Assembly (NCBI RefSeq): GCF_004210375.1
Contig: NC_134837.1
Location: 252,617,964-252,681,963, forward strand
Direction of reading: 5' to 3'
From: Tachypleus tridentatus
Taxonomy: Eukaryota
Length of the DNA stretch: 64,000 nt
The notes under the pieces are model-generated. The model was not told the DNA's origin. It searched no databases and saw only the letters and a program-made list of their open reading frames with translations. Below are positions 3,723 through 64,000 of this stretch, piece after piece; positions within the stretch are counted from its first letter, which is position 1; every line of letters starts with the position of its first letter. The translations under genes and the position numbers were made by a program.

Positions 3723-3740
3723 CTGTGAAACAATGTAATG

Positions 3741-17337: not shown

Positions 17338-17924
17338 CTATATAAACAATATTGCATTGTATAATTACAAATGAGCTTCAATTTCTCAAAAATTAACAAA
17401 CCATGGGAATTTTTTGTTTTGGCATAAACTGAATTTATTTCTTGCTCTATAGTCTAAATAGTCTTGATGTAGCATTACCAAAATATCAGACATTGGAGGA
17501 ATGAAAATGGTTTTAGTGATTTAGTTCTCTATATACGTCCTAATTTATTTTACCTATCACAAATCTTCATTGTACAAAATATTTCCTGTCTTGCTGTAAG
17601 TAACAAAGAAGAATATTACTTGCATTTATAAAATTCCTCTAGATCACACATTACTAAAAAAACACAGCTTTTTGAAGTTGAAACTAACCAATCACCCTGT
17701 TTGCCGAAAATTGCTATACTGATTAGTTTGGCTTCAATTTGCAGCCTTTGAAGCTGTGGTCATGTGGCCTACATAACAAAGTTGTACTTTTACCCCAAGT
17801 TTGAAATTTGTAGCCTTAAAGATATAACTGTGCACAAGGAACAGGCCCAGAGATGAAGAGAGAGAGAATATAAAGAAATATTTGCAATTATCTATATTTC
17901 TTTTTTTTTTTTCTGTTAACTTAC

Positions 17925-21780: not shown

Positions 21781-22046
21781 TTTGTTTGTTTTGTTGAATT
21801 TTATAAAAAGCTACTCAACTGCAATCTGCACTAGCCATACAAAATTCTGAAATGACAAAACTACAGGGAGGTTAACTCATCAGAAATACCTACTGTTAAC
21901 TCATGAGCTATTTATTTAACAACAAAAAGTGGGATTCACTGTCACATTATAATGACTCCATGGTTGAAAGGGTGACTATATTTGGATACTGAATTCATAC
22001 CCAGAGATTACAAGTCAAGTGCGCTAACCACCAGGCCATACTGAGC
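21781..22046 (-). mobile_element. Diverged copy of the same SINE family
   Basis: It aligns with the other copies (e.g. AAGTGGGATTCACTGTCACATTATAATG..., ...GATTACAAGTCAAGTGCGCTAACCACCAGGCCATACTGAGC). It is older and more mutated, and lies in a TEP1 intron. Confidence 0.65.
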
Positions 22047-35975: not shown

Positions 35976-36652
35976 TAAATGTTTAATTTATTGTATTATT
36001 TATGAAAACAATGACCAAACTGAAAGAATAGTATGCCCACTGAATGCACATGGAAACATTTATGTAATACTGAAATTCAATATAAGTTTGTAGCTCAAAA
36101 CTTCAAGAAAACTGGTCACTTTATAGCATATTTTATGACGACTGCCCTATGAAATGTCCTCTCAAATACCACTCATAGAATCAGGATCAAACAGGAAATA
36201 ATTTCTAAATTAAAATATAAAAGTACATCTCATATTGATTTCTTGCTTTTTAAAAATTAAAATAATTTTGTATTTTAAAACCATTTTTCATATTAATGTT
36301 TTGTGTATGTTTTCTTAATCTTTCCTTGGTTTTAATTAACAGTTCATTACTCTTGTATTTAAATTTCTTATATTGACATTACTATATTTTTTACATTTCT
36401 TTCTACTTTATTCAACTTTCTTTTCTTGTGTATTGCATTCCTTTTAGAATATTCAATGGTAACTTGTCATTTATCTACATGGTTGTTTTGGTTTGAAAAA
36501 TTACTGAAAGTATAAACAAATAAAACTAAAAATGTGTCAGGTGATTTATTCCCAAAAGTCTAATTTCATTACTTTATCATATTAACAGTTCTGGTACAAG
36601 AAAATAAAAACAATGGTTTAGTACCTCAGAAAGAAATATATTTCCAAAATAA

Positions 36653-36832
36653 CTGGTAAGAGTATTAAAACTTTAATTAAAATGAAGTAAAAAACAATGT
36701 TTCAACTTTATTAGGTCATCTTCAGGTTAACAAAGAGAGTTTGCAACTATTTGTTAAACTGAGGATGACCTAATAAGGTCAAAACATTGCTCTGTACTTT
36801 ATTTTAATTAAAGTTTTAATACCCATACCAGC
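36653..36832. repeat. Long imperfect hairpin or foldback, with roughly 75-bp arms (about 85% complementary) and a roughly 30-bp loop
   Basis: CTGGTAAGAGTATTAAAACTTTAATTAAAATGAAGTAAAAAACAATGTTTCAACTTTATTAGGTCATCTTCAG pairs with 36759-36832. It could be a MITE or foldback element, or a hairpin RNA precursor. Confidence 0.55.
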
Positions 36833-37568
36833 CAATTTAAAAATAAATTTTTACTACAAGTGGGTTTCTCATCATTATGAAGAAAGAAATATAAAATTCA
36901 AAAAATAACTATACAACAGATTGGATATTAAAACCATGCACTGATATCCTTATGATGAATGATAGTGAATTATATATGTGTGTGTAGCCTAAGAGTTGTT
37001 TACATAATTCTTTGTAGTTGCAAAAATATGATAATGGTATAAATATCAAAGTGAGAAGAATTATTCAAAGCAAGTCTTCAAACAGTTTAATAAAGCAGAT
37101 GACTAAAGTACTTGTAATTGCATTCCTTATTCTTACAATAAATGAAATGTGAAGAATTTTTTTGCATTGTTTTTTAAATTAGTAACTCAAACAAAGGTTA
37201 TGTAATGTGTTCCAAGAGTTTGTGTTCATGACAGTAAATGAATTAAAAGTTTAACCTTTAAAAAGATAAATGCAAAACCAAATTTGCTACTAAAGAATTC
37301 ACTTGTATAATTATATCACTCTCCACTAGAAGAAACTTATAAAAGAAGTAGTGAATACTAAATCCTTGAAAGTTCACACTTTTGTTCATGATGGAACATA
37401 AACCTTGTAGTATTCTGATCTTTATAAATTCAAAAGGTATATTACCTTATTCAATAAAACTATGAACATCTATACATACAATAAAACATGCATTTTCACT
37501 GATAAAGATATTAATTTTATCATACAATATATCTGGTGGAACAAATTATATGCATTTTCATGATATAC

Positions 37569-40144: not shown

Positions 40145-40431
40145 TTTTTGTTTTTTTGGAATTTCGCACAAAGCTACTCGAGGGCTATCTGTGCTAGCCG
40201 TCCCTAATTTAGCAGTGTAAGACTAGAGGGAAGGCAGCTAGTCATCACCACCCACCGCCAACTCTTGGGCTACCCTTTATACCAACGAAAAGTGGGATTG
40301 ACCGTAACATTATAACGCCCCCACGGCTTGGAGGGCGAGCATGTTTTGGCGCGACTCGGGCGCGAACCCGCGACTCTCAGATTGCGAGTAGAGCGCATTA
40401 ACCACCTGGCCATGCCGGGCCTTAAATGTTA
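40145..40431 (-). mobile_element. SINE copy, full length and GC-rich, so probably young. Its tRNA-like head GGCCCGGCATGGCCAGGTGGTTAATGCGCTCTACTCGCAATCTGAGAGTCGCGGGTTCGCGCCCG is on the minus strand.
   Basis: Near-identical to the 45927-46194 copy. It has CpG-rich tRNA-like A-box and B-box sequences and a (CAAAA)n tail at 40145-40160. Confidence 0.8.
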
Positions 40432-41366: not shown

Positions 41367-41572
41367 TTGTTTGTTTGTTTCTGAATTTTGCGCAAAGCTA
41401 CACGAGGGCGATGTGCACTAGCTGTCCCTAATTTAGCAGTGTAAGGCTAGAGGGAAAGTAGCTAGTCATCGCCATCCACCGCCAACTCTTGGGCTACTCT
41501 TTTACCAACGAATAGTGGGATTGACTGTCACATTGTAACGCCCCACGGCTGAAAGGGCGAGCATGTTTGGAG
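41367..41572 (-). mobile_element. SINE copy lacking the tRNA-like head (5'-truncated)
   Basis: It matches the body and tail of the family, then ends abruptly after GCATGTTTGGAGTC. Confidence 0.7.
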
Positions 41573-41882: not shown

Positions 41883-44421
41883 ATGTCAAGCCTGAAAAAG
41901 CAAAAGACACTGCATTGGTTCTTTAAACTCATTCGTGATGCTGAACCTTATCAATTTGCTGCAGCCAATCAGGTTGAATCAGAATTGTTAACTGAATTGT
42001 CAATGTCATCACCATGGCCTTCTACCACTGCTGCCACTACCACCTCAGGTCCAGTCTGGGACATTGGTAATTACATTTATGATGATTTCAGCATTGGTAA
42101 ACAGGTAAGTCGACTCCTCATTATATTAATTATGTACTAAAAATCATGCAAACAGTCTGATGAGTTTTAGACTGAATATTCATTGCTGCTAGTGATTGTA
42201 AACCTACAGCCACAGGATGTTAGGCCTGCTCTGTGAAGCACAGCTCTAAGCCTTTCTCTTTGAAGTTATTGTACTCTCATAACAAACTTTCCCATGTATG
42301 AAATAACTTAATTAGAACTATGTCTTTCTGTCTCTTTTAGATAAACGCTGAAACCAAAAAATGCCTCCTTGAAAATGCCTTGAAGCCAGGGAGTGATTAT
42401 GTTTTACCCCAGAGTGGTCCAAGAAAGCTGCGTTTTCAGCATCGTTGGCTTTCACAGTGGAGATGGCTACTCTACAGTCAACATGCAAAGGGTGCTTTCT
42501 GCAAGTACTGCTGTCTTTTTGCTCCTGATGGTGCTGGTGTTAGAAGCCAGAAATTGGGACAACTAGTGAAATTTCCATACACAAACTGGAAGAAAAAGCT
42601 AACAATTTTCTACAGGTCGTAAATACAAGTTCATCTGTGCATTTGCAGCTTGATGCAACTTACAAGTAAGAAATTAAAAAGAACCGGCAATATTTAATGC
42701 TTATTATTGATACTGTATTGCTGTGTGGGAGACAGGGTTTAGCTTTGAGGGAAAATGATGATCCTGGTCCAATGTTTGTTGGTGAAACTGATGAGGAGCC
42801 TATCAATAATGATGGGAATTTTTGGGCAATTTTCCGCCTTAAGAGTACAAAGAGGAATGCCACGTATCTGAGTCCTCAAATTCAAAATGAAATCATCAAT
42901 GCCTGTAATACTCATGTACTTGATGCTTTGGTCAACAGGATTAATGCTGCAAAGTGTTTCTCAATATTAGCTGATGAAACAACAGATATTTCAGGCATTG
43001 AACAGTTTTCGCTGTGTTAAATATTTGCATGCTAATGACAACTCTACTGTAATGAGAGAATATTTTTTGCAATTTATACCTGTTTATGATGTGACAGGCA
43101 GAAACTTGGCTGATGTTATTATAACCAATCTGACAAAATATGGTATTGACATCTTACCTGGGAGGACAAGGGTACGACAGTGCTGTCTCTATGAGTGGGA
43201 AATTCAATGGTGTCCAGAGACACATAACTGATAAATTTCCACTTGCACCCTCTGTACACTGCAGTGCTTATTCCCTAAACTTGACAATTTCTGATGCTTG
43301 TAAAGAAGTTCCTGTGCGAAATTGCATGGGAGTAATTTCTAGCATTGAAAACTTTCTCAATACACCCAAACAAAAGCACATTTTGGCTCTTTCGGTGGAG
43401 AATAAAGCACCTGAATCGAAAAAAAAGTTTGAAAAGTCTCTGCCCCACCCGGTGGGTTGAGAGGCATGACTCAGTCATTGTCTTTCTAGAATTAATCCAT
43501 GCAGTTGCAGATGCCCTTTAGACCATATCAGTTTGGCAAGACAGAGATTTTGTCACGCAAGCCAATCAATTGTTGTGTTCTATAACACAGCCAGAATTCA
43601 TCATTACTCTACTTACCAATGCTAAATTGTGTTCCTTTAGTTTACCTCTGTGAAACTTACTGCAGCAACAGAACATTAATTTAGGTGCTGCGATGCATCA
43701 CGCAGAAATAGTGGAAGATTTAATCCGTTCACTCAGGAATAATACTGTGAATGAATTTAACAACATTTTCTGTGAGGCTCAAACTCTGTGTAGTGAGCTT
43801 CAAATTGACATCATAATGCCAAGGCAGGCTAAAAGACAGATGTATCGTGCTAACCCACAAACCACTAGCCCTGAGGAGTACTTTCGTATTGTTGTATTTG
43901 TACCATTTGTTGATCACTTTCTTTCACAAATATGTGACCGTCTGTCCAGTCACAAAACTCTCATTACAAACCTCATGTGTCTACTACCATCAGGATCTAC
44001 CACAGAATGGTCAGAACCTACAACACAACAATGTGACCAAATTAAAGAGTTGGTCAATATATGCAAGGCTGACATTGACAGCACTTCACTAGCTGCGGTA
44101 GGTGAACTTAGGGTTTGATACAAATCACTTGCGAACAACAGACCAAAAAATGTCATAGATGCATATGCAATGTGCATTGCAGAAATGTTCCCAGTCATTT
44201 CTAGACTCTTGAAAGTATTTGCCAGGCTGCCTGTGTCAACGAGATCAGTGGAGCGTTCGTTTTCAACTCTCAGAAGACTGAAAACATATTTGAGAAATAC
44301 CACCACTGAAGATCGATTGAATGGCCTGGTCTCATTATACATTCACCGTGATATTAAAGTTGAACCAAACTGTGTTGTAGATGTCCTGGCAAGAACAAAC
44401 AGGCGTTTGAGCCTTTCATAG
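41883..44421 (+). mobile_element. hAT-superfamily transposase relic of the ZMYM1/ZBED (Charlie)-like type. It has a zf-TTF region (WLSQWRWLLYSQHAKGAFCKYCCLF), a DUF4371 region (LSPQIQNEIINACNTHVLDALVNRINAAKCFSILADETTDISGIEQ), an RNase-H-like core (GQGYDSAVSMSGKFNGVQ...SVHCSAYSLNL) and a hAT dimerisation domain (VSTRSVERSFSTLRRLKTYLRNTTTEDRLNGLVSLYIHRD). It is broken into at least 6 frames.
   Basis: The ORFs at 41883-42108, 42342-42622, 42697-43020, 42974-43231, 43140-43460, 43693-44118 and 44170-44421 lie in different frames but together give a colinear hAT transposase. One canonical intron (GTAAGT...TTTTAG, 42109-42341) sits near the 5' end. The frameshifts indicate a pseudogene. Confidence 0.8.
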
Positions 44422-45864
44422 ATATTCGATTGTATTTCTCTGGTTCTGACAAAACTTGCTGTATTAAAAGAGTGTTCAATCAGAAATTTGCATTTGACCA
44501 TTTGTTGTGTGTGAAATTATCTGCTATGCAATCACGGATCTTTATGAAACTTCACAGGTGGCAACTAAACTTGTCTAAAAAGTTTGGGTCCATGGGGGTT
44601 AACCCTCAACCCCCCTGGCTACACCCCTGGTGATCTTCGTACTGAAAGACGGGAAATTTGTGTACTCGCATCGAGTTTCAAAGATTCATTCTTCGATGAT
44701 TAATTAGTAAAACAGCAAAATGTACCTTTAACTTCTTTAGTTATGACTGTATGTTAAGTATTATAATTTATCTCAGACGGGTCTCTGATTTATTATGTTA
44801 CAGTCATTATAATTGGAAGTTGGACTGAGAAGTTAATTGAAAGCTGATATGCGTCATATTTTGGATATTTGCCAATAAGAATAATACACACATTTTACTT
44901 TCTTAACACAAATATATTTTAATATACAAACAAGAATATAATTTATAATAACAATTATTACAAAAAATTATTTACATTCAAATGTTTTACCAACTTGAAA
45001 AGAATACTGAGTCTTCTATCTGGTCTGGAACTGAATACTTTATCTACTGTTCACGAGGCGCAAATTAGTTTTATGTCCAAAGTTAACGTCCGAAGTTAAT
45101 TCTCTGAAGTTCGAAATAATGTTCGAAATCTATAAATGTTCCTGGTCAAATATCTCTAGTTTTTCGATTAATAAGCGTTAATCACAATTACAGCTTCCAA
45201 AGCTTATAGTATGTTGACTGTAGCTGACAAACAATATCATATTTGCCTCCCAACGTTTTGCGATAGCTTCCTTTTATACTCATTAGGCGAGATTCTCGAA
45301 AATTAATTGGCAACAATATTCGAAAATAAGCTAGTGCTTTCGTATATATATATTGTTGATTCTCATACTCGAGAATCTTCTACAAATCTATAGAACATGC
45401 GGGACTTGTGCGACACACATTTAATAGTATAAGTTACACACATTTCTAAATAGTTATATATTAAAGTGAAACAAACATAGATATTAAAATAATATTAAAT
45501 CATTTACTGATAGTTTACTGAATCTTGTTAATAATTAAATATACGATTGAATTCGATAATGAATAATTATAAACTATCCTAATAAATTAATAGATGCAGA
45601 ACTTTGCTTAAGTTTATACAAGTTTACTTTTAGATAAGTAGTGTATTTTTCAGACTCTCCTTAAATATAAATGTATAAGTAATTTATACTCTATACATTT
45701 TATACAATTAACCATAATTAGTTGTATTTCAGTTTGTTAGCAAACGATTTTAAAAAATTCAATTTCAATTGTGTTTTACTTTAAGTTTGTTTATGCACAT
45801 ATCATTTTTATAATAAATTATACTAAATTTTATTTTAACAATAAATAAAAGAAACTGTTAGTGA

Positions 45865-46215
45865 TACTACTTTTGGTTATTAGTATAATGACAACACTAC
45901 TAATATTTGTATTATAGTTTGAAGACTTGTTTGGAAATTTCGCACAAAGCTACTCGAGGGCTATCTGTGCTAGCCGTCCCTAATTTAGCAGTGTAAGACT
46001 AGAGGGAAGGCAGCTAGTCATCACCACCCACCGCCAACTCTTGGGCTACTCTTTACCAACAAATAGTGGGATTGACCGTCACATTATACACCCCCCACGG
46101 CTGGGAGGGCGAGCATGTTTAGCGCGACGCGGGCGCGAACCCGCGACCCTCGGATTACGAGTCGCACGCCTTACGCGCTAGGCCATGCCGGGCCAGTTTG
46201 AAGACAAGGAACAGG
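45865..46215 (+). repeat. Solitary 78-bp satellite monomer (GATACTACTTTTGGTTATTAGTATAATGACAACACTACTAATATTTGTATTATAGTTTGAAGAC...AAGGAACA) interrupted by the SINE
   Basis: Identical to the consensus of the array at 51.1-64 kb. It lies about 5 kb proximal to the array. Confidence 0.85.
45927..46194 (-). mobile_element. SINE copy inserted into a solitary 78-bp satellite monomer. It has a perfect 11-bp TSD AGTTTGAAGAC.
   Basis: AGTTTGAAGAC occurs at 45916-45926 and again at 46195-46205. The flanks (45865-45926 and 46195-46215) are the same monomer that forms the 51.1-64 kb array. Confidence 0.85.
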
Positions 46216-46679
46216 GATGGAGGGTATACACCCCCCATTTATTTTAGGTGGGGGTGTGGTGCATACAATCATCTCCCCCCTACAGTTTGGTCTGTTGAAT
46301 TGTTTTATTGCATCACAGTCCTACAAATTGTGTGTTTGTTCTTGTGATTCTCGTGTTCTTACCAATCGAATTACATAATTAGGCCTAGATGTAGGCTTTT
46401 TCAGCAGACGAAATGTACATCTTTAATATAGGCGTGCTTCTAAGCTTTTCGATGTAAGCGATAGTTCGTAAGTATCAGTCAGTAGGCCTAAGTATACATG
46501 CAAGGCTTGCAAGTACTATCACAGAATCTACATACGTCTTGTACGTAGTGTAAGATTAAGTAAAATTTTCATCACAACTGATTGAACATAGCATGAAATA
46601 CGAAAATATTACTCCCAAGCGTAAACTCCTGTGATCTAGATCTGGCAGGCCATTTGTAGCTTGTAGCTGCATCAATCTT

Positions 46680-46930
46680 AAGTGTATATTGCGCGGTTTT
46701 CCTACGCCATTTGTTCTTATGCATGTCTAGCCGGTTTTATTGTCGAACGCCTTACTCTCCTTAGCTGCCGAATTCGCTGACCATAGTGTACGTTTAGCGT
46801 ACAGTTAACGACAGGTCGGGTCGCTCGGATCCAGACGCGCCCTACATCACCCCCGTCCGCTCCCTTTGGTCTTAGCCTGGATTTTATGACAGGGCTCATT
46901 AGACCTGTGTTTGTGGCCCTCATAAAATTT
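46680..46930. other. Isolated CpG-rich, GC-rich island within otherwise AT-rich DNA
   Basis: GTCGGGTCGCTCGGATCCAGACGCGCCCTACATCACCCCCGTCCGCTCCC... It lies 400-700 bp upstream of the LINE RT fragment. It may be a retroelement 5' UTR or promoter remnant. No coding signal was found. Confidence 0.35.
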
Positions 46931-47279
46931 CAGATTATCACCGCCCTCTAATAAAGTGCTGGTGCTTTATGGTAGAATAATAAAATATATTCTTTTATCA
47001 TAGATAGTAAAAATATTATATTTTCTTGTATAATTAGAACATGAAAGGAGCGATTTCAACGGTCTGAAGCCTCTACTCGAATTGTATTATTGGTTTTTGT
47101 TTAGGTGTTTTTATTTAATAGACGTGCTTATAGACATTATATCACAACGTGTTTGCCTTTTGATGAGCTTTAACACAAATATAATATATTTGTGATTGTT
47201 TAAGTATTTTTCGAGAAACTCGCAATTACTTGTGTTGTAATTAGCACACATTATTGTCCCAGCGATGCTCAGGCGGTCA

Positions 47280-49450
47280 GGCGGCTCGGTAGTCACTGTG
47301 AGGTTCGCACGTTCGACTTAAATACATTGTACAGTTCAGTCCTACTTCCATCAATCCTAATTCTATTGATGAGTATCTATTAATCATCACCAACACGATA
47401 ATTAATGCAATGAACACAATAATTTCTAAGCGCCGTATCAACAATGACCCATCTTCATGGAAACTTACTAGAACAGTGCATTTACTTATCACTAAAAGAC
47501 GAAGACTCCGACGCCAATTCATGATCTCCCGCGACCCCGCGATTAAACATCAAATCAACCGAGTAACTAATCTTATCAGACGTCGAATTAATGAACAAAA
47601 AGATCAAAATTAGTCCGAGTTATGTGCGTCAATAGACAATTCATATACAGATTCGGCTACATTCTGGAGAAAGTTCAAGAACATATGTAATGACAACTCA
47701 ACCAACAGCATTCCTAATTTAAAACTTGATAGCAGCTCAGCAACTAGCGACCTGAAAAAGCCAACTTATTAGACGATTACTACAAACAGATTTTCACTAC
47801 TCCGAACTCGCCACACTTTGATAACAATCATTTTTGCACAATTCAAAATTTCGTCAAAGATAACAATCAAATAACACTATTTAGTAGGAATTTCCCATGC
47901 TATTTATCACACAATAGCAATGTCCGCCTTAACGACCTTCAAAAACTCACCAGATCAATAACCCGGATTGAAATCAAACTAGTAACCAAAACACTTAAAA
48001 ATAGTGCCCCAGGTGAGGATAGAATACGTAATATCATTCTTAACAAAGCCTCTACCTCGTTTATAGTCATCTAGTCAGCCTTATTTAACCTTTCTTTTTA
48101 TTCAGGGTACTACCCGCCTCAATGCAAGTCCGCCATAAATAAAGTTATACCTAAAACAAATCCTGCATCTAATAATCCAAAAGACTATAGGCCCATCAGC
48201 TTAATTAATAGCATTGGTAAATTATTGGAAAAAATCTTAGCCACTCGCATTACACGGTATTTGGAAAGCATTATGTTACTTTCTGAAATACAAAATGCCT
48301 CCCGAAGAAAAAGACGGACTGCCGATCATTTAGTTCGATTAACCGAATCCGTTATTCAAGGTTTTAATAGAAATCACACCACTGTGGGCTTATTTTTGGA
48401 TGTCAAACAAGTCTTTGATTCTGTCTGGCACCAGGGTCTAAGGTTTAACTTCCTTCAGTTTAACCTCCCGTCCACCCTAACAAGATGGATAGCTAGCTTT
48501 CTAGATAACAGGACAGCTAAAGTAAGAATAAACAACACTACATCCTACACTGTTCAGGCGTTCCCCAAGGTTCAGTACTAAGCCTTCTGTTGTATGTATT
48601 ATATGTTAATGACATCCCCTTTCCTAAGTTCAAGTACACCTATGCGTCGCAATATGCTGACGACATAGCAGTATGGAGCATGCCACGTGAACCCCTTTTG
48701 GCCGCCGCTAAAGTCCAATCCACACTAGATAGCATTACCACCATGTGTAACACCTGGCGGGTCGCGCTTAATGCCACTAAAACGCAGGCTATAATATTCA
48801 AACGCAAAATCTCGAGGAAAAACAAATCTATCTCTGAACTTAATATAATGGACAATGAACTTAAATTTTCTTCAACTATAAAATTCCATGGCATTATGTT
48901 CAACAAGTAGCTAACTTGGACCGATCACTTTAAAGCCATTCTCTCAAAAGTATATAAACGAATCTCCTACCTCAGAAGAATCAGTAGTATCGTCAGAGGA
49001 TGTAGAACAAAAACGATTCTCATAATATACAGAATTTACATTCGACCGATCATTGAATACGGCAACATGATCACTGCAAAAGCACCACTCTTACATCTTA
49101 AAAAATTACAACAGGCCCAGAATCTTGCCATTCGACTAGCACATCGAATCCCCAGGTACACACCGTGATAACGCAAGCACCTTCCCAACACTCAAGAAAA
49201 GACTTACCTATCTAGCAGCTAAATACTATAAAAAAGCAAACAACCGTACACCATCAACAAGACAATTTCCACAACTAGCAGCCACCCCACGATCTTGGCA
49301 GCGATACCTCTCACCACATAATTACATACAAGCCCTGAATGTAAACTCAAATGACTAACCATATATGCCTTTTTACTTCCAGCATTGGGTGCCCCACCAG
49401 TGAAAGTGTGTTTTCTCGGGGTACTCCCGTTTCTCCCCACATCAAAATTC
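47280..49450 (+). mobile_element. Degenerate non-LTR retrotransposon (Jockey/CR1-like clade) reverse-transcriptase fragment
   Basis: RT motifs appear in several frames: LKNSAPGEDRIRN, YPPQCKSAINKVIPK...KDYRPISLINSIGKLLEKI, RRKRRTADHL, LFLDVKQVFDSVWH, YADDIAVW, and a C-terminal region TKTILIIYRIYIRPIIEYG. Stops and frameshifts are present, and no endonuclease or ORF1 lies upstream, so it is 5'-truncated. Confidence 0.8.
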
Positions 49451-50058
49451 TTTTCTCTTAGGATTTATAGATCCCAGCCCTGAAAATAGGCCAGTTAGAA
49501 CGCATCTTAATCATCACCAAATTCTAGTACCAAAATTTCAGGTTAATTTAGAACATGAGTTCTAACCAAGCTGACGTACTGTTTGCATCTCTCTGCTCGT
49601 CTCAACTCATCTTTCTTCGACTACATTTACGTTTAAGAAACCTTTAAGTGGATGAATGAGTTGCTGAATCTCTCGCCGTAGTCTTCGTTCTCTCTCTCCG
49701 ACTCGGGGGCCTCCTCCGCAGCTTTTTCCGAAGCTCCTTAAGCAGTCACACAAGTATGTTAATTTCAGGGTCATCTGTGATCACCATTCCAGATTAACAA
49801 ATATCTTGCCACTCAAGTTCACTTCACCAATCACGTACTCCGTTTAATTTTATCTAGTCGCGTGTGGGGTGAAGAGAAACAGTAGTTTTTGACCACCCCT
49901 GGTTATTTTTCGTTCCCTTTGATGAACGGAATTATAAATTAACCTAAATACCTATCCAGTATCCACTCCTACTTCCATTCTGTTCTATCTTCGTTCGTTG
50001 TACGTTAGAGTTTTTCAATAAAGACTGTATTTTAGTCTGTGGAATCATCTGGGAAACA

Positions 50059-51150
50059 GATTCCAATTATGACAAGCAAGCGTCTGAAACTTTCTGATAT
50101 TAGACAATTCTATAAGCCAGTTACTAGTACTACAAGTGACAATGCAGATGCAGATAATCCAACAACCTCAAGCAAAGGAATATAAACTTGCCATACAGAG
50201 GAAATACCATGTTCATCAGAGGACGAGTGTGAAAATGCTTGTGCAACATCATGAACCACCAGATAGTTGTGAAATATGTTTATGCAGCAATGAAAAATCT
50301 GACACTCCACAGATACAGTGTGGAAAGCCATATCATCCAGATGCACAACTAATACCACGACAGAAAGCAAAATCTCAAAATATCAACTTCCAGGGCAAGT
50401 GGTTTCATGAGTTCCCATGGTTGCACTTCGACAATCAGACTCAAAAAGTCATATGCTTTCATTGCGCCAGGGCAGAAACTAGAGGCCATTTTACAGGAAA
50501 ATTGGAGAGGCCAGTGGAATATACCTTCATATCCACCGGTTTTTTGCAACTGGAAAAAGGCAAAACAGAAATTCAACGAACACAAATCCTCCTCTCAGCA
50601 CAGATTCGCTATATCTCCAGAAGGTTCACTTGATGTAACTCCAGTGACTGTCCAGCTACATGATGGAAAAAAGAAGCAGCAGGAAGAGTGAAAAGAAGTC
50701 CAGCCAAAATATTCAGAAGTTTACGTTTCTTACTGCGTTAAGGCTTAGCATTACGTGGACATACTGATACGGAGGGGAACTTCCTGCAGTTAATGAAGCT
50801 CCTGGAAGAGGAAGATCCTGAGTTGACAGCCAACTTGTCAAAGAAAACCACAGTCACATCATCCCAGGCTCAGAATGAAATAATGGAGATGTTCAGCCAA
50901 CAAATACTGAGGAACATAGCACAGGAAGTGCATCAGAGTAAAATATTTGCATTAATGGTTGATGGCACTCAAGATGTTACAGGTGCCAAACAGGAAGCAA
51001 TATGTGTACGATACGCAGATGAGAACCTTGACGTCAATGAGACATTTCTTGGTTTGTACAGTGTTTCCAATACAACTGGTGAAACAATATCCTCGACTAT
51101 ATGTGATGTACTGACAAAACTCAATTTACCACTGGCAGGATTAAGAGCAC
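50059..51150 (+). mobile_element. Second hAT-like transposase relic, from a different family. It has a zf-TTF region (FQGKWFHEFPWLHFDNQTQKVICFHCARA ... FISTGFCNWKKAKQKFNEH) and a DUF4371 region (SSQAQNEIMEMFSQQILRNIAQEVHQSKIFALMVDGTQDVTGAKQEAICVRYADENLDVNETFLGLYSVSN). It is frameshifted, has an in-frame TAA (RFLLR*GLALRGHTDTEGNFLQLMKL) and is 3'-truncated by the satellite array.
   Basis: The domain order matches ZMYM1-like hATs. Several frameshifts fall between 50160 and 50800. The coding similarity stops at ...LAGLRAQ, exactly where the 78-bp satellite begins. Confidence 0.75.
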
Positions 51151-51151
51151 A

Positions 51152-54100
51152 AACTAATATTTGTATTATCGTTTGAAGACAACGAACATCCCTCTCAGCT
51201 ACTTTTGATTATTAGTATAATGACAACACTACCAATATTTGTATTATAGTTTGAAGACAAGAAATATCCCTTCCAGCTAATTTTTGTTATTAGTATAATG
51301 AAAACACTACTAATATTCGCATTATAGTTTGAACAGAAGGAACATCCCCTTCAGCTACTTTTGGTTATTAGTATAATGACAACACTACTAATATTTGTAT
51401 TATAGTTTGAACAGAAGAAACATCCCTTTCAGCTACATTTGATTATTAGTATAATGACAACACTACTAACATTTGTATTATACTTTGAAGACAAGGAACA
51501 TCCCTTACAGCTACTTTTGGTTATTAGTATAATGACAACACTACTAATATTTGTATTATAGTTTGAACAGAAAGAACATCCCCTTCAGCTACTTTTGGTT
51601 ATTAGTATAATGACAACACTACTAATATTTGTATTATAGTTTGAACAGAAGGAACATCCCTTTCAGCAATTGTTGGTTATTAGTATAATGACAACACTAC
51701 CAATATTTGTATTATAGTTTGAAGACAAGAAATATCCCTTCCAGCTAATTTTTGTTATTAGTATAATGAAAACACTACTAATATTCGCATTATAGTTTGA
51801 AGACAAGGATCATCCCTTTCAACTACTTTTGGTTATTAGTATAATGACAACACTACTAATATTTGTATTATAGTTTGAACAGAAAGAACATCCCCTTCAG
51901 CTACTTTTGGTTATTAGTATAATGACAACACTACTAATATTTGTATTATAGTTTGAACAGAAGGAACATCCCTTTCAGCTATTGTTGATTATTAGTATAA
52001 TGACAACACTACTAATATTTGTATTATAGTTTGAACAGAAGGAACATCCCTTTCAGCTATTGTTGGTTATTAGTATAATGACAACACTACCAATATTTGT
52101 ATTATAGTTTGAAGACAAGAAATATCCCTTCCAGCTAATTTTTGTTATTAGTATAATGAAAACACTACTAATATTCGCATTATAGTTTGAAGACAAGGAT
52201 CATCCCTTTCAACTACTTCTGGTTATTAGTATAATGACAACACTACTAATATTTGTATTATAGTTTGAACAGAAGGAACATCCCTTTCAGCTACATTTGA
52301 TTATTAGTATAATGACAACACTACTAACATTTGTATTATACTTTGAAGACAAGGAACATCCCTTACAGCTACTTTTGGTTATTAGTATAATGACAACACT
52401 ACTAATATTTGTATTATAGTTTGAACAGAAAGAACATCCCCTTCAGCTACTTTTGGTTATTAGTATAATGACAACACTACTAATATTTGTATTATAGTTT
52501 GAACAGAAGGAACATCCCTTTCAGCTATTGTTGGTTATTAGTATAATGACAACACTACTAATATTTGTATTATAGTTTGAACAGAAAGAACATCCCTTTC
52601 AGCTATTGTTGGTTATTAGTATAATGACAACACTACTAATATTTGTATTATAGTTTTAACAGAAGGAGCATCCCTGTCAGCTACTTTTGGTTATTAGTAT
52701 AATGACAACACTACTAACATTTGTATTATAGTTTGAAGACAAGGAACATCCCTTTCAGCTACTTTTGGTTAATAGTATAATGACAACACTACCAATATTT
52801 GTATAATAGTTTGAAGACAAGGAACATCCCTTACAACTACTTTTTGTTATTAGTATAATGACAACACTACTAATATTTGTATTATAGTTTGAACAGAAGG
52901 AACTTTCCTTCCAGCTACTTTTGGTTATTAGTATAATGACAACACTACTAATATTTGTATTATAGTTTGAACAGAAGGAACATCCCTTTCAGCTACTTTT
53001 GGTTATTAGTATAATGACAACACTACCAATATTTGTATTATAGTTTGAACAGAAGGAGCATCCCTTTCAGCTATTGTTGGTTATTAGTATAATGACAACA
53101 CTACTAATATTTGTATTATAGTTTGAAGACAAGGAACATCCCTTCCAGCTACTTTTGGTTATTAGTATAATGACAACACTACCAATATTTGTATTATAGT
53201 TTGAAGACAAGAAATATCCCTTCCAGCTAATTTTTGTTATTAGTATAATGAAAACACTACTAATATTCGCATTATAGTTTGAAGACAAGGAACATCCCTT
53301 CCAGCTACTTTTGGTTATTAGTATAATGACAACACTACTAACATTTGTATTATAGTTTGAACAAAAAGAACACCCCTTTCAGCTACTTTTGGTTATTAGT
53401 ATAATGACAACACTACTAATATTTGTATTATAGTTTGAACAGAAGGAACATCCCTTTCAGCTACTTTTGGTTATTAGTATAATGACAACACTACTAATAT
53501 TCGCATTATAGTTTGAAGACAAGGAACATCCCTTCCAGCTACTTTTGGTTATTAATATAATGACAACACTACTAATATTTGTATTATAGTTTGAACAGAA
53601 GGAACATCTCTTTTAGCTACTTTTGGTTAATAGTATAATGACAAAACTACCAATATTTGTATTATAATTTGAAGACAAGAAATATCCCTTCCAGCTAATT
53701 TTTGTTATCAGTAAAATGAAAACACTACTAATATTCGCATTATAGTTTGAAGACAAGGAACATCCCTTCCAGCTACTTTTGGTTATTAATATAATGACAA
53801 CACTACTAATATTTGTATTATAGTTTTAACAGAAGGAGAATCCCTTTCAGCTATTGTTGGTTATTAGTATAATGACAACACTACTAATATTTGTATTATA
53901 ATTTTAACAGAAGGAGCATCCCTTTCAGCTATTGTTGGTTATTAGTATAATGACAACACTACTAATATTTGTATTATAGTTTGAACAGAAGTAGCATCCC
54001 TTTCAGCTATTGTTGGTTATTAGTATAATGACAACACTACCAATATTTGTATTATTGTTTGAACAGAAGGAGCATCCCTTTCAGCTATTGTTGGTTATTA

Positions 54101-57100
54101 GTATAATGACAACACTACTAATATTTGTATTATAGTTTTAACAGAAGGAGCATCCCTTTCAGTTACATTTGATTATTAGTATAATGACAACACTACTAAC
54201 ATTTGTATTATAGTTTGAAAACAAGGAACATCCCTTACAGCTACTTTTGGTTATTAGTATAATGACAACACTACTAATATTTGTATTATAGTTTGAACAG
54301 AAGGAACATCCCATTCAGTTACATTTGATTATTAGTATAATGAAAACACTACTAACATTTGTATTACACTTTGAAGACAAGGAACATCCCTTACAGCTAC
54401 TTTTGGTTATTAGTATAATGACAACACTACTAATATTTGTATTATAGTTTGAACAGAAGGAACATCCCTTTCAGCTATTGTTGGTTATTAGTATAATGCC
54501 AACACTACTAATATTTGTATTATAGTTTTAACAGAAGGAACATCCCCTTCAGCTTCTTTTGGTTATTAGTATAATGACAACGCTACTAATATTTGTATTA
54601 TAGTTTGAACAGAAGGAACATCCCTTTCAGCTATTGTTGGTTATTAGTATAATGACAACACTACTAACATTAGTATTATAGTTTGAAGACAAGGATCATC
54701 CCTTTCAACTACTTCTGGTTAATAGTATAATGACAACACTACTAATATTTGTATTATAGTTTGAACAGAAGGAACATCCCTTTCAGCTACATTTGATTAT
54801 TAGTATAATGAAAACACTACTAACATTTGTATTATACTTTGAAGACAAGGAACATCCCTTACAGCTACTTTTGGTTATTAGTATAATGACAACACTACTA
54901 ATATTTGTATTATAGTTTGAACAGAAGGAACATCTCTTTCAGCTACTTTTGGTTATTAGTATAATGACAACACTACTAATATTTGTATTATAGTTTGAAC
55001 AGAAGGAACATCCCCTTCAGCTTCTTTTGGTTATTAGTATAATGACAACGCTACTAATATTTGTATTATAGTTTGAACAGAAGGAACATCCCTTTCAGCT
55101 ATTGTTGGTTATTAGTATAATGACAACACTACTAATATTTGTATTATAGTTTTAACAGAAGGAGCATCCCTTTCAGCTACTTTTGGTTATTAGTATAATG
55201 ACAACACTACTAACATTTGTATTATACTTTGAAGACAAGGAACATCCCTTCTAGCTACTTTTGGTTATTAATATATTGACAACACAACTAATATTTGTAT
55301 TATAGTTTGAACAGAAGGAACATCCCTTTCAGCTACTTTTGGTTATTAGTATAATGACAACACTACCAATATTTGTATTATAGTTTGAAGACAAGGAACA
55401 TCCCTTACAGCTACTTTTGGTTATTAGTATAATGACAACACTACTAATATTTGTATTATAGTTTGAACAGAAGGAACTTTCCTTCCAGCAACTTTTGGTT
55501 ATTAGTATAATGACAACACTACTAATATTTGTATTATAGTTTGAACAGAAGGAACATCCCTTTCAGCAACTTTTGGTTATTAGTATAATGACAACACTAC
55601 TAATATTTGTATTATAGTTTGAACAGAAGGAACATCTCTTTCTGCTATTGTTGGTTATTAGTATAATGACAACACTACTAATATTTGAATTATAGTTTTA
55701 ACAGAAGGAGCATCCCTTTCAGCTATTGTTGGTTATTAGTATAATGACAACACTACTAATATTTGTATTATAGTTTTAACAGAAGGAGCATCCCTTTCAG
55801 CTATTGTTGGTTATTAGTATAATGACAACACTACTAATATTTGTATTATAGTTTGAACAGAAGGAGCATCCCTTTCAGCTATTGTTGGTTATTAGTATAA
55901 TGACAACACTACCAATATTTGTATTATAGTTTGAACAGAAGGAACATCCCTTTCAGCTATTGTTGGTTATTAGTATAATGACAACACTACCAATATTTGT
56001 ATTATAGTTTGAACAGAAGGAGCATCCCTTTCAGCTATTGTTGGTTATTAGTATAATGACAACACTACTAATATTTGTATTATAGTTTGAAGACAAGGAA
56101 CATCCCTTCCAGCTACTTTTGGTTATTAGTCTAATGACAACACTACCAATATTTGTATTATAGTTTGAACAGAAGGAGCATCCCTTTCAGCTATTGTTGG
56201 TTATTAGTATAATGACAACACTACCAATATTTGTATTATAGTTTGAAGACAAAGAACATCCCTTCCAGCTACTTTTGGTTATTAGTATAATAACAACACT
56301 ACCAATATTTGTATTATAGTTTGAAGACAAGGAACATCCCTTACAGCTACTTTTGGTTATTAGCATAATGACAACACTACCAATATTTGTATTATAGTTT
56401 GAAGTTAAGAAATATCCCTACCAGCTAATTTTTGTTATTAGTATAATGAAAACACTACTAATATTCGCATTATAGTTTGAAGACAAGGATCATGCCTTTC
56501 AACTACTTCTGGTTATTAGTATAATGACAACACTACCAATATTTGTATTATAGTTTGAACAGAAGGAATATCCCTTTCAGCTACATTTAGTTCTTAGTAT
56601 AATGACAACACTACTAACATTTGTATTATAGTTTGAAGACAAGGAACATCCCTTCCAGCTACTTTTGGTTATTAATATAATGACAACACTACTAATATTT
56701 GTATTATAGTTTGAACAGAAGGAACATCCCTTTCAGCTACTTTTGGTTATTAGTATAATGACAAAACTACCAATATTTGTATTATAATTTGAAGACCAGA
56801 AATATCCCTTCCAGCTAATTTTTGTTATCAGTATAATGAAAACACTACTAATATTCGCATTATAGTTTGAAGACAAGGAACATCCCTTCCAGCTACTTTT
56901 GGTTATTAATATAATGACAACACTACTAATATTTGTATTATAGTTTGAACAGAAAGAACATCCCCTTCAGCTACTTTTGGTTATTAGTATAATGACAACA
57001 CTACTAATATTTGTATTATAGTTTGAACAGAAGGAACATCCCCTTCAGCTACTTTTGGTTATTAGTATAATGACAACACTACTAATATTTGTATTATAGT

Positions 57101-60100
57101 TTGAACAGAAGGAACATCCCTTTCAGCTATTGTTGGTTATTAGTATAATGACAACACTACTAATATTTGTATTATAGTTTGAACAGAAGGAACATCCCTT
57201 TCAGCTACTTTTGGTTATTAGTATAATGACAACACTACTAATATTTGTATTATAGTTTGAAGACAAGGAACATCCCTTCTAGCTACTTTTGGTTATTAAT
57301 ATAATGACAACACTACTAATATTTGTATTATAGTTTGAACAGAAGGAACATCCCTTTCAGCTACTTTTGGTTATTAGTATAATGACAACACTACCAATAT
57401 TTGTATTATAGTTTGAAGACAAGGAACATTTCTTACAGCTACTTTTGGTTATTAGTATAATGACAACACTACTAATATTTGTATTATAGTTTGAACAGAA
57501 GGAACATCCCTTCCAGCTACTTTTGGTTATTAGTATAATGACAACACTACTAATATTTGTATTATAGTTTGAACAGAAGGAACATCCCTTTCAGCTACTT
57601 TTGGTTATTAGTATAATGACAACACTACTAAATTTGTATTATAGTTTGAACAGAAGGAACATCCCTTTCAGCTATTGTTGGTTATTAGTATAATGACAAC
57701 ACTACTAATATTTGTATTATAGTTTGAACAGAAGGAGCATCCCTTTCAGCTATTGTTGGTTATTAGTATAATGACAACACTACTAATATTTGTATTATAG
57801 TTTGAACAGAAGGAGCATCCCTTTCAGCTATTGTTGGTTATTAGTATAATGACAACACTACTAAATTTGTATTATAGTTTGAACAGAAGGAACATCCCTT
57901 TCAGCTATTGTTGGTTATTAGTATAATGACAACACTACTAATATTTGTATTATAGTTTGAACAGAAGGAACATCCCTTTCAGCTATTGTTGGTTATTAGT
58001 ATAATGACAACACTACTAATATTTGTATTATAGTTTGAACAGAAGGAACATCCCTTTCAGCTATTGTTGGTTATTAGTATAATGACAACACTACTAATAT
58101 TTGTATTATAGTTTGAAGACAAGGAACATCCCTTCCAGCTACTTTTGGTTATTAGTATAATGACAACACTACTAATATTTGTATTATAGTTTGAACAGAA
58201 GGAACATCCCTTTCAGCTATTGTTGGTTATTAGTATAATGACAACACTACTAATATTTGTATTATAGTTTGAAGACAAGGAACATCCCTTCCAGCTACTT
58301 TTGGTTATTAGTATAATGACAACACTACTAATATTTGTATTATAGTTTGAAGACAAGGAACATCCCTTACAGCTACTTTTGGTTATTAGTATAATGACAA
58401 CACTACTAATATTTGTATTATAGTTTGAAGTTAAGAAACATCCCTTCCAGCTAATTTTTGTTATTAGTATAATGAAACACTACTAATATTTGTATTATAG
58501 TTTGAAGACAAGGAACATCCCTTTCAGCTACTTTTGGTTATTAGTATAATGACAACACTACTAATATTTGTATTATAGTTTGAACAGAAGGAACATCCCT
58601 TTCAGCTACATTTGGTTATTAGTATAATGACAACACTACTAATATTTGTATTATAGTTTGAAGACAAGGAACATCCCTTCCAGCTACTTTTGGTTATTAG
58701 TATAATGACAACACTACTAATATTTGTATTATAGTTTGAACAGAAGGAACATCCCTTTCAGCTACTTTTGGTTATTAGTATAATGACAACACTACCAATA
58801 TTTGTATTATAGTTTGAAGACAAGAAACATCCCTTCCAGCTAATTTTGGTTATTAGTATAATGAAAACACTACTAATATTTGTATTATAGTTTGAAGACA
58901 AGGAACATCCCTTCCAGCTACTTTTGGTTATTAGTATAATGACAACACTACTAATATTTGTATTATAGTTTGAACAGAAAGAACATCCCTTCAGCTACTT
59001 TTGGTTATTAGTATAATGACAACACTACTAATATTTGTATTATAGTTTGAACAGAAGGAACATCCCTTTCAGCTATTGTTGGTTATTAGTATAATGACAA
59101 CACTACTAATATTTGTATTATAGTTTGAACAGAAGGAACATCCCTTTCAGCTATTGTTGGTTATTAGTATAATGACAACACTACTAATATTTGTATTATA
59201 GTTTGAAGACAAGGAACATCCCTTCCAGCTACTTTTTGGTTATTAGTATAATGACAACACTACTAATATTTGTATTATAGTTTGAAGACAAGGAACATCC
59301 CTTTCAGCTACTTTTGGTTATTAGTATAATGACAACACTACTAATATTTGTATTATAGTTTGAACAGAAGGAACATCCCTTTCAGCTACATTTGGTTATT
59401 AGTATAATGACAACACTACTAATATTTGTATTATAGTTTGAAGACAAGGAACATCCCTTACAGCTACTTTTGGTTATTAGTATAATGACAACACTACTAA
59501 TATTTGTATTATAGTTTGAACAGAAGGAACATCCCTTCAGCTACTTTTGGTTATTAGTATAATGACAACACTACTAATATTTGTATTATAGTTTGAACAG
59601 AAGGAACATCCCTTTCAGCTATTGTTGGTTATTAGTATAATGACAACACTACTAATATTTGTATTATAGTTTGAACAGAAGGAACATCCCTTTCAGCTAT
59701 TGTTGGTTATTAGTATAATGACAACACTACTAATATTTGTATTATAGTTTTAACAGAAGGAGCATCCCTTTCAGCTACTTTTGGTTATTAGTATAATGAC
59801 AACACTACTAACATTTGTATTATAGTTTGAAGACAAGGAACATCCCTTTCAGCTACTTTTGGTTATTAGTATAATGACAACACTACTAATATTTGTATTA
59901 TAGTTTGAAGACAAGGAACATCCCTTACAGCTACTTTTTGTTATTAGTATAATGACAACACTACTAATATTTGTATTATAGTTTGAACAGAAGGAACATC
60001 CCTTCCAGCTACTTTTGGTTATTAGTATAATGACAACACTACTAATATTTGTATTATAGTTTGAACAGAAGGAACATCCCTTTCAGCTACTTTTGGTTAT

Positions 60101-63100
60101 TAGTATAATGACAACACTACTAATATTTGTATTATAGTTTGAACAGAAGGAACATCCCTTTCAGCTATTGTTGGTTATTAGTATAATGACAACACTACTA
60201 ATATTTGTATTATAGTTTGAAGACAAGGAACATCCCTTCCAGCTACTTTTGGTTATTAGTATAATGACAACACTACCAATATTTGTATTATAGTTTGAAG
60301 ACAAGGAACATCCCTTCCAGCTACTTTTGGTTATTAGTATAATGACAACACTACTAATATTTGTATTATAGTTTGAAGACAAGGAACATCCCTTCCAGCT
60401 ACTTTTGGTTATTAGTATAATGACAACACTACTAATATTTGTATTATAGTTTGAACAGAAGGAACATCCCTTTCAGCTACTTTTGGTTATTAGTATAATG
60501 ACAACACTACTAATATTTGTATTATAGTTTGAACAGAAGGAACATCCCTTTCAGCTACTTTTGGTTATTAGTATAATGACAACACTACTAATATTTGTAT
60601 TATAGTTTGAAGACAAGGAACATCCCTTCCAGCTACTTTTGGTTATTAATATAATGACAACACTACTAATATTTGTATTATAGTTTGAACAGAAGGAACA
60701 TCCCTTTAGCTACTTTTGGTTATTAGTATAATGACAAAACTACTAATATTTGTATTATAGTTTGAAGACAAGAAACATCCCTTCCAGCTAATTTTTTTGT
60801 TATTAGTATAATGAAAACACTACTAATATTCGCATTATAGTTTGAAGACAAGGAACATCCCTTCCAGCTACTTTTGGTTATTAATATAATGACAACACTA
60901 CTAATATTTGTATTATAGTTTTAACAGAAGGAACATCCCTTTCAGCTATTGTTGGTTATTAGTATAATGACAACACTACTAATATTTGTATTATAGTTTT
61001 AACAGAAGGAGCATCCCTTTCAGCTATTGTTGGTTATTAGTATAATGACAACACTACTAATATTTGTATTATAGTTTGAACAGAAGGAGCATCCCTTTCA
61101 GCTATTGTTGGTTATTAGTATAATGACAACACTACTAATATTTGTATTATAGTTTGAACAGAAGGAACATCCCTTTCAGCTATTGTTGGTTATTAGTATA
61201 ATGACAACACTACTAATATTTGTATTATAGTTTTAACAGAAGGAGCATCCCTTTCAGCTACATTTGGTTATTAGTATAATGACAACACTACTAATATTTG
61301 TATTATAGTTTGAAAACAAGGAACATCCCTTACAGCTACTTTTGGTTATTAGTATAATGACAACACTACTAATATTTGTATTATAGTTTGAACAGAAGGA
61401 ACATCCCTTTCAGCTACATTTGATTATTAGTATAATGACAACACTACTAACATTTGTATTATAGTTTGAAGACAAGGAACATCCCTTACAGCTACTTTTG
61501 GTTATTAGTATAATGACAACACTACTAATATTTGTATTATAGTTTGAACAGAAGGAACATCCCTTTCAGCTATTGTTGGTTATTAGTATAATGACAACAC
61601 TACTAATATTTGTATTATAGTTTGAACAGAAGGAACATCCCTTCAGCTTCTTTTGGTTATTAGTATAATGACAACACTACTAATATTTGTATTATAGTTT
61701 GAACAGAAGGAACATCCCTTTCAGCTATTGTTGGTTATTAGTATAATGACAACACTACTAATATTTGTATTATAGTTTGAAGACAAGGATCATCCCTTTC
61801 AACTACTTCTGGTTATTAGTATAATGACAACACTACTAATATTTGTATTATAGTTTGAACAGAAGGAACATCCCTTTCAGCTACATTTGATTATTAGTAT
61901 AATGACAACACTACTAACATTTGTATTATACTTTGAAGACAAGGAACATCCCTTACAGCTACTTTTGGTTATTAGTATAATGACAACACTACTAATATTT
62001 GTATTATAGTTTGAACAGAAGGAACATCCCTTTCAGCTACTTTTGGTTATTAGTATAATGACAACACTACTAATATTTGTATTATAGTTTGAACAGAAGG
62101 AACATCCCTTCAGCTTCTTTTGGTTATTAGTATAATGACAACACTACTAATATTTGTATTATAGTTTGAACAGAAGGAACATCCCTTTCAGCTATTTTTG
62201 GTTATTAGTATAATGACAACACTACTAATATTTGTATTATAGTTTGAACAGAAGGAACATCCCTTTCAGCTACTTTTGGTTATTAGTATAATGACAACGC
62301 TACTAATATTTGTATTATAGTTTGAAGACAAGGAACATCCCTTCAGCTACTTTTGGTTATTAATATAATGACAACACTACTAATATTTGTATTATAGTTT
62401 GAACAGAAGGAACATCCCTTTCAGCTACTTTTGGTTATTAGTATAATGACAACACTACCAATATTTGTATTATAGTTTGAAGACAAGGAACATCCCTTAC
62501 AGCTACTTTTGGTTATTAGTATAATGACAACACTACTAATATTTGTATTATAGTTTGAACAGAAGGAACATCCCTTCCAGCTACTTTTGGTTATTAGTAT
62601 AATGACAACACTACTAATATTTGTATTATAGTTTGAACAGAAGGAACATCCCTTTCAGCTACTTTTGGTTATTAGTATAATGACAACACTACTAATATTT
62701 GTATTATAGTTTGAACAGAAGGAACATCCCTTTCAGCTATTGTTGGTTATTAGTATAATGACAACACTACTAATATTTGTATTATAGTTTGAACAGAAGG
62801 AACATCCCTTTCAGCTATTGTTGGTTATTAGTATAATGACAACACTACTAATATTTGTATTATAGTTTGAACAGAAGGAACATCCCTTTCAGCTATTTTT
62901 GGTTATTAGTATAATGACAACACTACTAATATTTGTATTATAGTTTGAACAGAAGGAACATCCCTTTCAGCTATTTTGGTTATTAGTATAATGACAACAC
63001 TACTAATATTTGTATTATAGTTTGAACAGAAGGAACATCCCTTTCAGCTATTGTTGGTTATTAGTATAATGACAACACTACTAATATTTGTATTATAGTT

Positions 63101-64000
63101 TGAACAGAAGGAACATCCCTTTCAGCTATTGTTGGTTATTAGTATAATGACAACACTACTAATATTTGTATTATAGTTTGAAGACAAGGAACATCCCTTC
63201 CAGCTACTTTTGGTTATTAGTATAATGACAACACTACTAATATTTGTATTATAGTTTGAACAGAAGGAACATCCCTTTCAGCTATTTTGGTTATTAGTAT
63301 AATGACAACACTACTAATATTTGTATTATAGTTTGAAGACAAGGAACATCCCTTCCAGCTACTTTTGGTTATTAGTATAATGACAACACTACTAATATTT
63401 GTATTATAGTTTGAAGACAAGGAACATCCCTTACAGCTACTTTTGGTTATTAGTATAATGACAACACTACCAATATTTGTATTATAGTTTGAACAGTTAA
63501 GAAATATCCCTACCAGCTATATTTTTTATTAGTATAATGACAACACTACTAATATTTGTATTATAGTTTGAAGACAAGGAACATCCCTTTCAGCTACTTT
63601 TGGTTATTAGTATAATGACAACACTACTAATATTTGTATTATAGTTTGAACAGAAGGAACATCCCTTTCAGCTACATTTGGTTATTAGTATAATGACAAC
63701 ACTACTAACATTTGTATTATAGTTTGAAGACAAGGAACATCCCTTCCAGCTACTTTTGGTTATTAATATAATGACAACACTACTAATATTTGTATTATAG
63801 TTTGAACAGAAGGAACATCCCTTTCAGCTACTTTTGGTTATTAGTATAATGACAACACTACTAATATTTGTATTATAGTTTGAAGACAAGAAATATCCCT
63901 TCCAGCTAATTTTTTGTTATTAGTATAATGAAAACACTACTAATATTCGCATTATAGTTTGAAGACAAGGAACATCCCTTCCAGCTACTTTTGGTTATTA
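51152..64000. repeat. Satellite DNA array. The 78-bp monomer is GTTTGAACAGAAGGAACATCCCTTTCAGCTACTTTTGGTTATTAGTATAATGACAACACTACTAATATTTGTATTATA. It spans at least 12.8 kb (about 165 copies) and continues past the window end.
   Basis: Strict 78-bp periodicity is visible throughout. Recurring monomer subtypes are GAACAGAAGG vs GAAGACAAGG, CTACTTTTGG vs CTATTGTTGG vs CTACATTTGA, and a distinct variant ...GAAATATCCCTTCCAGCTAATTTTTGTTATTAGTATAATGAAAACACTACTAATATTCGC recurring every 5-14 units. Confidence 0.95.

Follow-up and report, generated by a model that had tools for sequence, protein, structure and literature searches.

The window analysed here, a 64,000-nucleotide stretch of Tachypleus tridentatus DNA, carries at 45927-46194 a SINE copy which very probably arose when a copy of a tRNA-like, non-autonomous SINE entered a stray 68-bp piece of satellite DNA through a staggered 11-bp break, the repair of which gave the duplication of AGTTTGAAGAC. 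The insertion of this SINE into a stray, incomplete monomer is real, cleanly delimited and ordinary in kind. The fragment lies to the left of a long array of the same 78-bp satellite, and the most likely history of the site, with about an even chance of being right, is that the satellite once reached to 45867 and was afterwards altered by a hAT insertion, a LINE and a deletion or rearrangement.

Results

A SINE delimited by an exact 11-bp duplication

The features at the insertion site are as follows.

45867-45926, plus strand: left part of the satellite relic, 60 bp, positions 47-78 and 1-28 of the array consensus, matching array monomers at 100%; the final 11 bp form the left duplication copy
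45916-45926, no strand: target-site duplication, left copy, AGTTTGAAGAC, an exact repeat, unique at its spacing outside the array
45927-46194, minus strand: SINE copy, 268 bp, with head GGCCCGGCATGGCC... and tail ...GCGAAATTTCCAAACAA, recognised by family copies in the window, GC and the observed/expected ratio of CpG
45927-45934, minus strand: 3' tail of the SINE, CCAAACAA, one and a half units of the family (AAAC)n, as judged from the tails of other copies
46129-46185, minus strand: tRNA-like head (Rfam tRNA, 20.8 bits, E=0.09, under the gathering score of 29)
46195-46205, no strand: target-site duplication, right copy, AGTTTGAAGAC, an exact repeat
46206-46213, plus strand: right part of the satellite relic, 8 bp, AAGGAACA, with which the monomer continues seamlessly once the insert is removed

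A sequence-only reading of this DNA had proposed that a SINE retrotransposed into a stray satellite monomer with a perfect 11-bp duplication, and this central claim is upheld by the exact repeats, a flank match of 100% and insert ends defined by the family. On re-examination both copies of AGTTTGAAGAC were present, directly abutting the insert as 11-bp direct repeats 268 bp apart. They form the sole 11-mer identity at exactly that spacing in the 51 kb scanned outside the array, and the chance of such a word, estimated from composition, is ~3e-7. Taking out the insert together with one of the repeats restores an unbroken stretch of satellite monomer, in which 45867-45926 and 46206-46213, together 68 bp, align gap-free at 68/68 positions to six array monomers (E=2.6e-31), confirming that the flanks belong to the 78-bp satellite; nearly all remaining array monomers also match over this span. 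The predicted empty allele reads ...TATTATAGTTTGAAGACAAGGAACAGGG... (also given as ...TATTATAGTTTGAAGACAAGGAACAGGGATGG...) with a single AGTTTGAAGAC. The duplicated 11-mer occupies positions 50-60 in the 68-bp relic, and not the first bases of the monomer, as had been supposed. On a wider scale (45600-46500), the local sequence is a GC-rich block breaking up AT-rich DNA.

Two other origins of the repeat pair were weighed. About 51 array monomers contain the 11-mer, one copy apiece, so that the copies could in principle derive from two different monomers, brought to either side of a pre-existing SINE by recombination or deletion. However, the repeats adjoin the family-defined SINE ends to the base, no more than 8 bp of monomer follow the right copy and the visible array is without the SINE, making this origin highly improbable. 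Repeat-rich regions are prone to misassembly, and a SINE-containing read might have been misjoined to satellite sequence; such an artefact is scarcely credible, however, as a chimeric join would not yield a precise 11-bp duplication at family ends together with a seamless monomer.

Ends, relatives and relative age of the SINE

The insert is on the minus strand and is both GC-rich and CpG-intact, in agreement with the sequence-only reading: its GC is 0.57 vs 0.30 for the window, and it has 22 CpGs observed vs 21.5 expected (observed/expected 1.03). A BLAST of the insert against the window returned five further copies or fragments.

3739-3777, minus strand: SINE fragment (BLAST)
13790-14046, minus strand: old SINE copy, 77% identical, CpG observed/expected 0.08 (BLAST), with a 10-bp duplication, AATAGAAATA, adjoining the family head and the (AAAC)n tail
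21807-21951, minus strand: SINE copy or fragment, 72% identical (BLAST)
40152-40421, minus strand: full-length SINE relative, 90% identical, CpG observed/expected 0.95, the closest in the window (BLAST, alignment)
41375-41568, minus strand: 5'-truncated SINE copy, 88% identical (BLAST)

An alignment of five copies has the family starting at GGCCCGGCATGGCC and finishing in GCGAAATTC followed by (AAAC)1-3, and the insert ends at exactly those positions, its 5' end being the family head and its 3' end the family tail; the copies have the head GGCCCGGC and the body in common. A separate 10-bp duplication adjoins the family head and tail in the copy at 13790-14046, and the boundaries of the insert are thus independently confirmed; at the copy 40152-40421 no duplication was recognisable. 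The SINE is a short, non-coding, dispersed multi-copy sequence with conserved ends, a short-repeat tail and duplications of variable sequence (11 bp here, 10 bp at 13790-14046). All six SINE copies and fragments of the window, the insert included, are on the minus strand, and the three leftmost lie among minus-strand gene exons, in sense orientation to the gene. The left part of the window holds exons, at 7772-8050 and 17112-17399 on the minus strand, of a TEP1-like gene (telomerase protein component 1) with matches to DUF4062 and the TROVE domain, the closest public proteins being 67-71% identical.

The CpG observed/expected ratios of the copies (1.03, 0.95, 0.77 and, for the two most diverged, 0.08 and 0) drop with falling identity to the 45927-46194 copy, from which it follows that this genome erodes CpGs in old copies and that the 45927-46194 copy is among the youngest. 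The copy is so relatively young, an age that is relative only. The insertion had been called datable, which goes too far, as CpG decay gives a relative age and the window, holding no subfamily consensus, gives no date. The copies 45927-46194 and 40152-40421, the youngest two, are near-identical over the 3' 120 nt and differ at about one quarter of positions in the tRNA-like head, a contrast which suggests mosaic subfamilies or replacement of the head. A 13-mer, TATACACCCCCCA, is shared by the SINE interior (46085-46097) and the flank (46225-46237), 140 bp off, with the SINE version needing a copy-specific variant; the sharing is probably chance, the other option being that it is part of a hAT-like subterminal motif.

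The head of the insert is the most tRNA-like among the family copies of the window. The anticodon-loop position in the Rfam tRNA match reads CGU, and both an A-box-like TGGCCTAGCGC (46175-46185) and a B-box-like GGTTCGCGCCC (46131-46141) were read by eye. Against a tRNA origin of the head stand the Rfam score below gathering, the failure of ARAGORN to find a tRNA in the SINE and a minimum-energy fold of the head which has no cloverleaf; in two other SINE copies the Rfam tRNA model found nothing at E<=1. The head aligns far better than shuffles to a putative tRNA-Thr(CGU) sequence not taken from a database, and this alignment serves as a lead only. A possible resemblance of the SINE to a horseshoe-crab repeat was given no weight. 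Patterns from the SINE core, run in two metagenome scans, hit no locus, the SINE and satellite sequence strings had no match in the literature, and the literature on horseshoe-crab SINEs and '78 bp' satellites yielded nothing relevant.

An incomplete monomer beside a homogeneous array

51153-64000, plus strand: 78-bp satellite array, 164.8 copies, 93% matches, no indels of note (Tandem Repeats Finder), running off the window end

When cut into 164 monomers, the array shows two main types, with 99 monomers of type A (GAACAGAAGG) and 59 of type B (GAAGACAAGG). It is internally duplicated, the segments 51153-56908 and 58249-64000 (5.8 kb each) being 96.8% identical at an offset of ~7.1 kb (91 monomers); other array registers are ~92.6% identical, and the string of A and B types repeats in step with the internal duplication. 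A second tandem array, at 9023-9740, has a 38-bp unit in 19 copies with 87% matches and is very AT-rich. Tandem Repeats Finder gave no TE insertion in the visible 12.8 kb of the 78-bp array, while the 11 kb to its left are TE-dense, with three SINE copies, two hATs and one LINE at a GC of 0.36-0.46 vs about 0.28 elsewhere. The earlier suggestion that the array edge is being colonised by TEs therefore holds for the flank and fails for the array proper within the window.

The relic had been described as a complete monomer identical to the array consensus. It is 68 of 78 bp long, its similarity to the satellite stopping abruptly at 45867 and 46213, and its identity is to the consensus of the minority type-B variant, GAAGACAAGG, with 2 positions unlike the majority consensus. 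This identity was considered as proof of recent separation and set aside: 6 of the 59 type-B monomers are equally identical to the type-B consensus, so the perfect match of the relic is no sign of recent separation. A scan of 1-51152 for satellite sequence found the relic alone and no second fragment outside the array. A weak likeness of the 3' flank of the SINE copy at 13790 to the monomer (E=4.9) was taken as chance.

As the sole monomer outside the array, and a consensus-like one, the relic might be the seed, the original single copy behind the 78-bp array. However, 10 of 78 bp are missing from it, it matches a derived or minority B variant instead of the majority type, it lies 4.9 kb from the array with TE sequence between, and its flanks are without similarity to the monomer ends. 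An origin of the array from this copy is thus very unlikely.

Transposable elements on either side of the relic

41884-44629, plus strand: upstream hAT element with 3' end ...CACCCCTG (DUF4371 and the hAT dimerisation domain, Dimer_Tnp_hAT)
46212-46235, plus strand: hAT-like terminal motif, CAGGGATG then GAGGGTATACACCCCC, sitting precisely where the relic ends on the right, with CAGGGRTG enriched
46214-47351, no strand: unclassified block, 1.1 kb, GC about 0.45, unmatched in Pfam and Rfam and not repeated in the rest of the window
47352-49966, plus strand: LINE fragment, 5'-truncated, with broken reading frames (RVT_1 E=7e-10 and 4e-5; frame tracing)
50069-51152, plus strand: N-terminal part of a hAT-type transposase gene (DUF4371 E=4.6e-13, ORF 50793-51176 running into the array), cut mid-frame at the array start

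Only TE debris, namely a LINE RT fragment and two hAT relics, had been placed between the relic and the array. The RT fragment is confirmed by its RVT_1 matches; one of the hAT relics (50069-51152, DUF4371) does lie there and the other (41884-44629) is upstream of the relic, and "only" does not hold, as 46214-47351 matches no protein, RNA or window repeat. The RT domain of the LINE fragment is placed at 48075-48910, with a Pfam-supported reverse-transcriptase stretch at 48225-48910, and the broken LINE reading frame was traced from ~47302 to ~49400. A 12-bp direct repeat, TCCTACTTCCAT, at 47340-47351 and 49967-49978 may have arisen as the target-site duplication of the LINE; 3 of 500 shuffles give a repeat of that length. 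For the upstream hAT, a 5' end was looked for and not found. An exact look-up of the ORFs 50793-51176 and 46217-46378 in public assemblies gave no match, and neither did a protein homology search with the hAT C-terminal ORF and the RT fragment. Elsewhere in the window, a MITE-like element at 36628-36893 (~240 bp, with long internal inverted repeats) is flanked by a 13-bp direct repeat, AGAAAGAAATATA, and at 6377-6667 the two copies of a 14-bp direct repeat, AAATTAACAGTATC, stand 277 bp apart with AT-rich sequence between them and may have been left by a further short insertion.

At the right edge of the relic, CAGGGATG at 46212 fits YARNG, the start of hAT terminal inverted repeats. The octamer CAGGGRTG occurs 5 times in the window vs 0.91 expected, a count of five which was reached by 0 of 100 shuffles, and its sites include both the relic edge and the 3' terminus of the upstream hAT at 44629 (the end or terminus motif is also written CAGGGATGGAGGG and CAGGGATGGAGGGTATACACC). 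The 46212 edge and the upstream hAT end also have in common a subterminal motif, GAGGGT(A)TA(C)ACCCCC, a weak likeness whose score was equalled by 19 of 1000 shuffles in one test and by 35 of 500 in another. These data suggest that a hAT-type end abuts the relic and that a DNA transposon also inserted in the monomer, 6-8 bp from the SINE site. The AGGGATG directly after the relic (46212-46219) is the reverse complement of CATCCCT, the would-be continuation of the monomer, and given the reading of this edge as a hAT end, the complementarity was judged to be chance.

More copies of the hAT-like octamer, CAGGGGTG, lie at 49894-49901 and 3474-3481, both on the minus strand. The first falls within what resembles the 3' region of the LINE, where it might terminate a further hAT-type element. 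It was also considered as the opposite end of the element at 46212, for which CAGGGGTGG at 49901 (minus strand) is a candidate with an 8/9 match, 46212 and 49901 sharing their terminal nine bases only. A single TIR-bounded element from 46212 to 49901 was not confirmed: there is no subterminal similarity, and no 8-bp hAT duplication was found (ACAAGGAA at 46204-46211 vs GTTATTTT after 49901). A search for an inverted partner of the 46212 terminus with <=3 mismatches gave none. At most one of the two signals, CACCCCTG at 49901 or the 12-bp repeat at 49967, can stand for a simple boundary of an element.

Discussion

The insertion can be set out as a model in which, by analogy with SINEs in general, the tRNA-like head would direct transcription by Pol III, and a partner LINE recognising the (AAAC)n-type tail would carry out target-primed reverse transcription at a break staggered by 11 bp, the repair of which would leave AGTTTGAAGAC on both sides. 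Ends that agree with those of the family, a tail of short repeats and an exact 11-bp duplication, different in sequence from copy to copy, are the standard signature of target-primed reverse transcription by LINE endonuclease and reverse transcriptase. The insertion had been described as L1-like, a label for which there is no support: the tail is of the (AAAC)n type and not poly(A), and the priming-strand site reads GAAGAC/AAGG, unlike a TT/AAAA nick target. The 11-bp duplication is within the L1-type range of roughly 7-20 bp, but duplications of this size are common to many LINE clades and are not diagnostic of L1. A partner was sought in the window's only LINE fragment (47352-49966), which has no similarity to the SINE and ends differently, in ...TATCCAGTATCCAC.

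The tRNA-derived SINEs that are mobilised by LINEs recognising a specific or short-repeat 3' tail form a general class (PMC4824008). The present SINE resembles tRNA-derived SINEs in its length of ~270 bp, its GC-rich tRNA-like head with A- and B-box-like motifs, its unique body and short-repeat tail, its variable duplications of 10-11 bp and its dispersed copies of different ages, and it is unlike typical members in that the tRNA score of its head is sub-threshold.

The history of the site itself is less certain. The sequence-only reading had envisaged a longer satellite progressively interrupted by insertions. However, the phase of the monomers is discontinuous: the relic ends at monomer position 36-38, and the array starts again at position 1 within the cut hAT frame, so that insertions alone are insufficient and at least one deletion or rearrangement is also needed. 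In the most likely history, the satellite would once have extended to 45867; a hAT-type DNA transposon, with its end motif CAGGGATG at 46212, would have entered the same monomer 6-8 bp from the SINE site; the LINE would then have inserted inside or beside that transposon; and a later deletion or rearrangement would have fused the truncated hAT frame to the present array start at 51153. This order of events is consistent with the enrichment of CAGGGRTG, its presence at the relic edge and at the upstream hAT end, the hAT frame cut by the array and the 12-bp repeat that brackets the LINE. However, it must contend with the missing match for an 8-bp hAT duplication, the weak similarity of the hAT ends and the conflicting boundary signals at 49901 and 49967.

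The main rival to this history of a remnant, a hAT insertion and a deletion is that the relic was never in a continuous array, and that the fragment was placed secondarily, either as a repair patch templated from the array 5 kb away or carried with the hAT-type end, with the SINE arriving later. Both boundaries of the relic are abrupt and have no degenerate monomers alongside, and the relic is under one monomer in length, equals a variant consensus, adjoins a hAT-like motif and is not continued in phase into the array, all of which would accord with such placement, as would the isolated monomers with abrupt junctions beside TEs in other animals (PMC5139131). However, consensus identity is not unusual (6/59 type-B monomers), the window has no second example, and the history of insertion plus deletion accounts for the same facts; secondary placement is rated unlikely. 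More doubtful is a further proposal, rated as improbable, in which the relic would be a satellite fragment linked to the hAT-type end, DNA transposons would move or seed satellite pieces, and the SINE would belong to a currently active, satellite-entering subfamily.

Two comparisons bear on these readings. Isolated satellite monomers and short arrays with abrupt junctions near TEs are known from molluscs and Tribolium (PMC5139131, PMC10048060), and the relic is like them in being a single incomplete monomer with abrupt transitions, TE fragments and anonymous sequence nearby. Unlike those dispersed copies, it has a long array of its own satellite just 4.9 kb away, so that it may have been cut off from that array and not dispersed. 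The edges of human alpha satellite offer the second comparison. Schueler et al., writing in 2001, reportedly found that the outer, monomeric alpha satellite at human centromeres contains L1 and Alu insertions. The present locus shares with these edges a TE-dense flank by a homogeneous, TE-free array and a retroelement in a monomer with an intact duplication, but it differs in having one isolated sub-monomer fragment, no gradient of decayed monomers and a border which is a breakpoint in a hAT gene.

The importance of the finding beyond the locus is small, and it bears on no open question; the locus documents a TE-dense border beside a homogeneous array, that is, an ordinary pile-up of TEs next to a satellite. 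With its perfect duplication and exactly predictable empty site, the insertion is a clean presence/absence marker. For the SINE family, which still looks young in this genome, 45927-46194 is a reference copy that fixes the ends, and it may find use in repeat annotation of the genome and in SINE markers for population or phylogenetic work.
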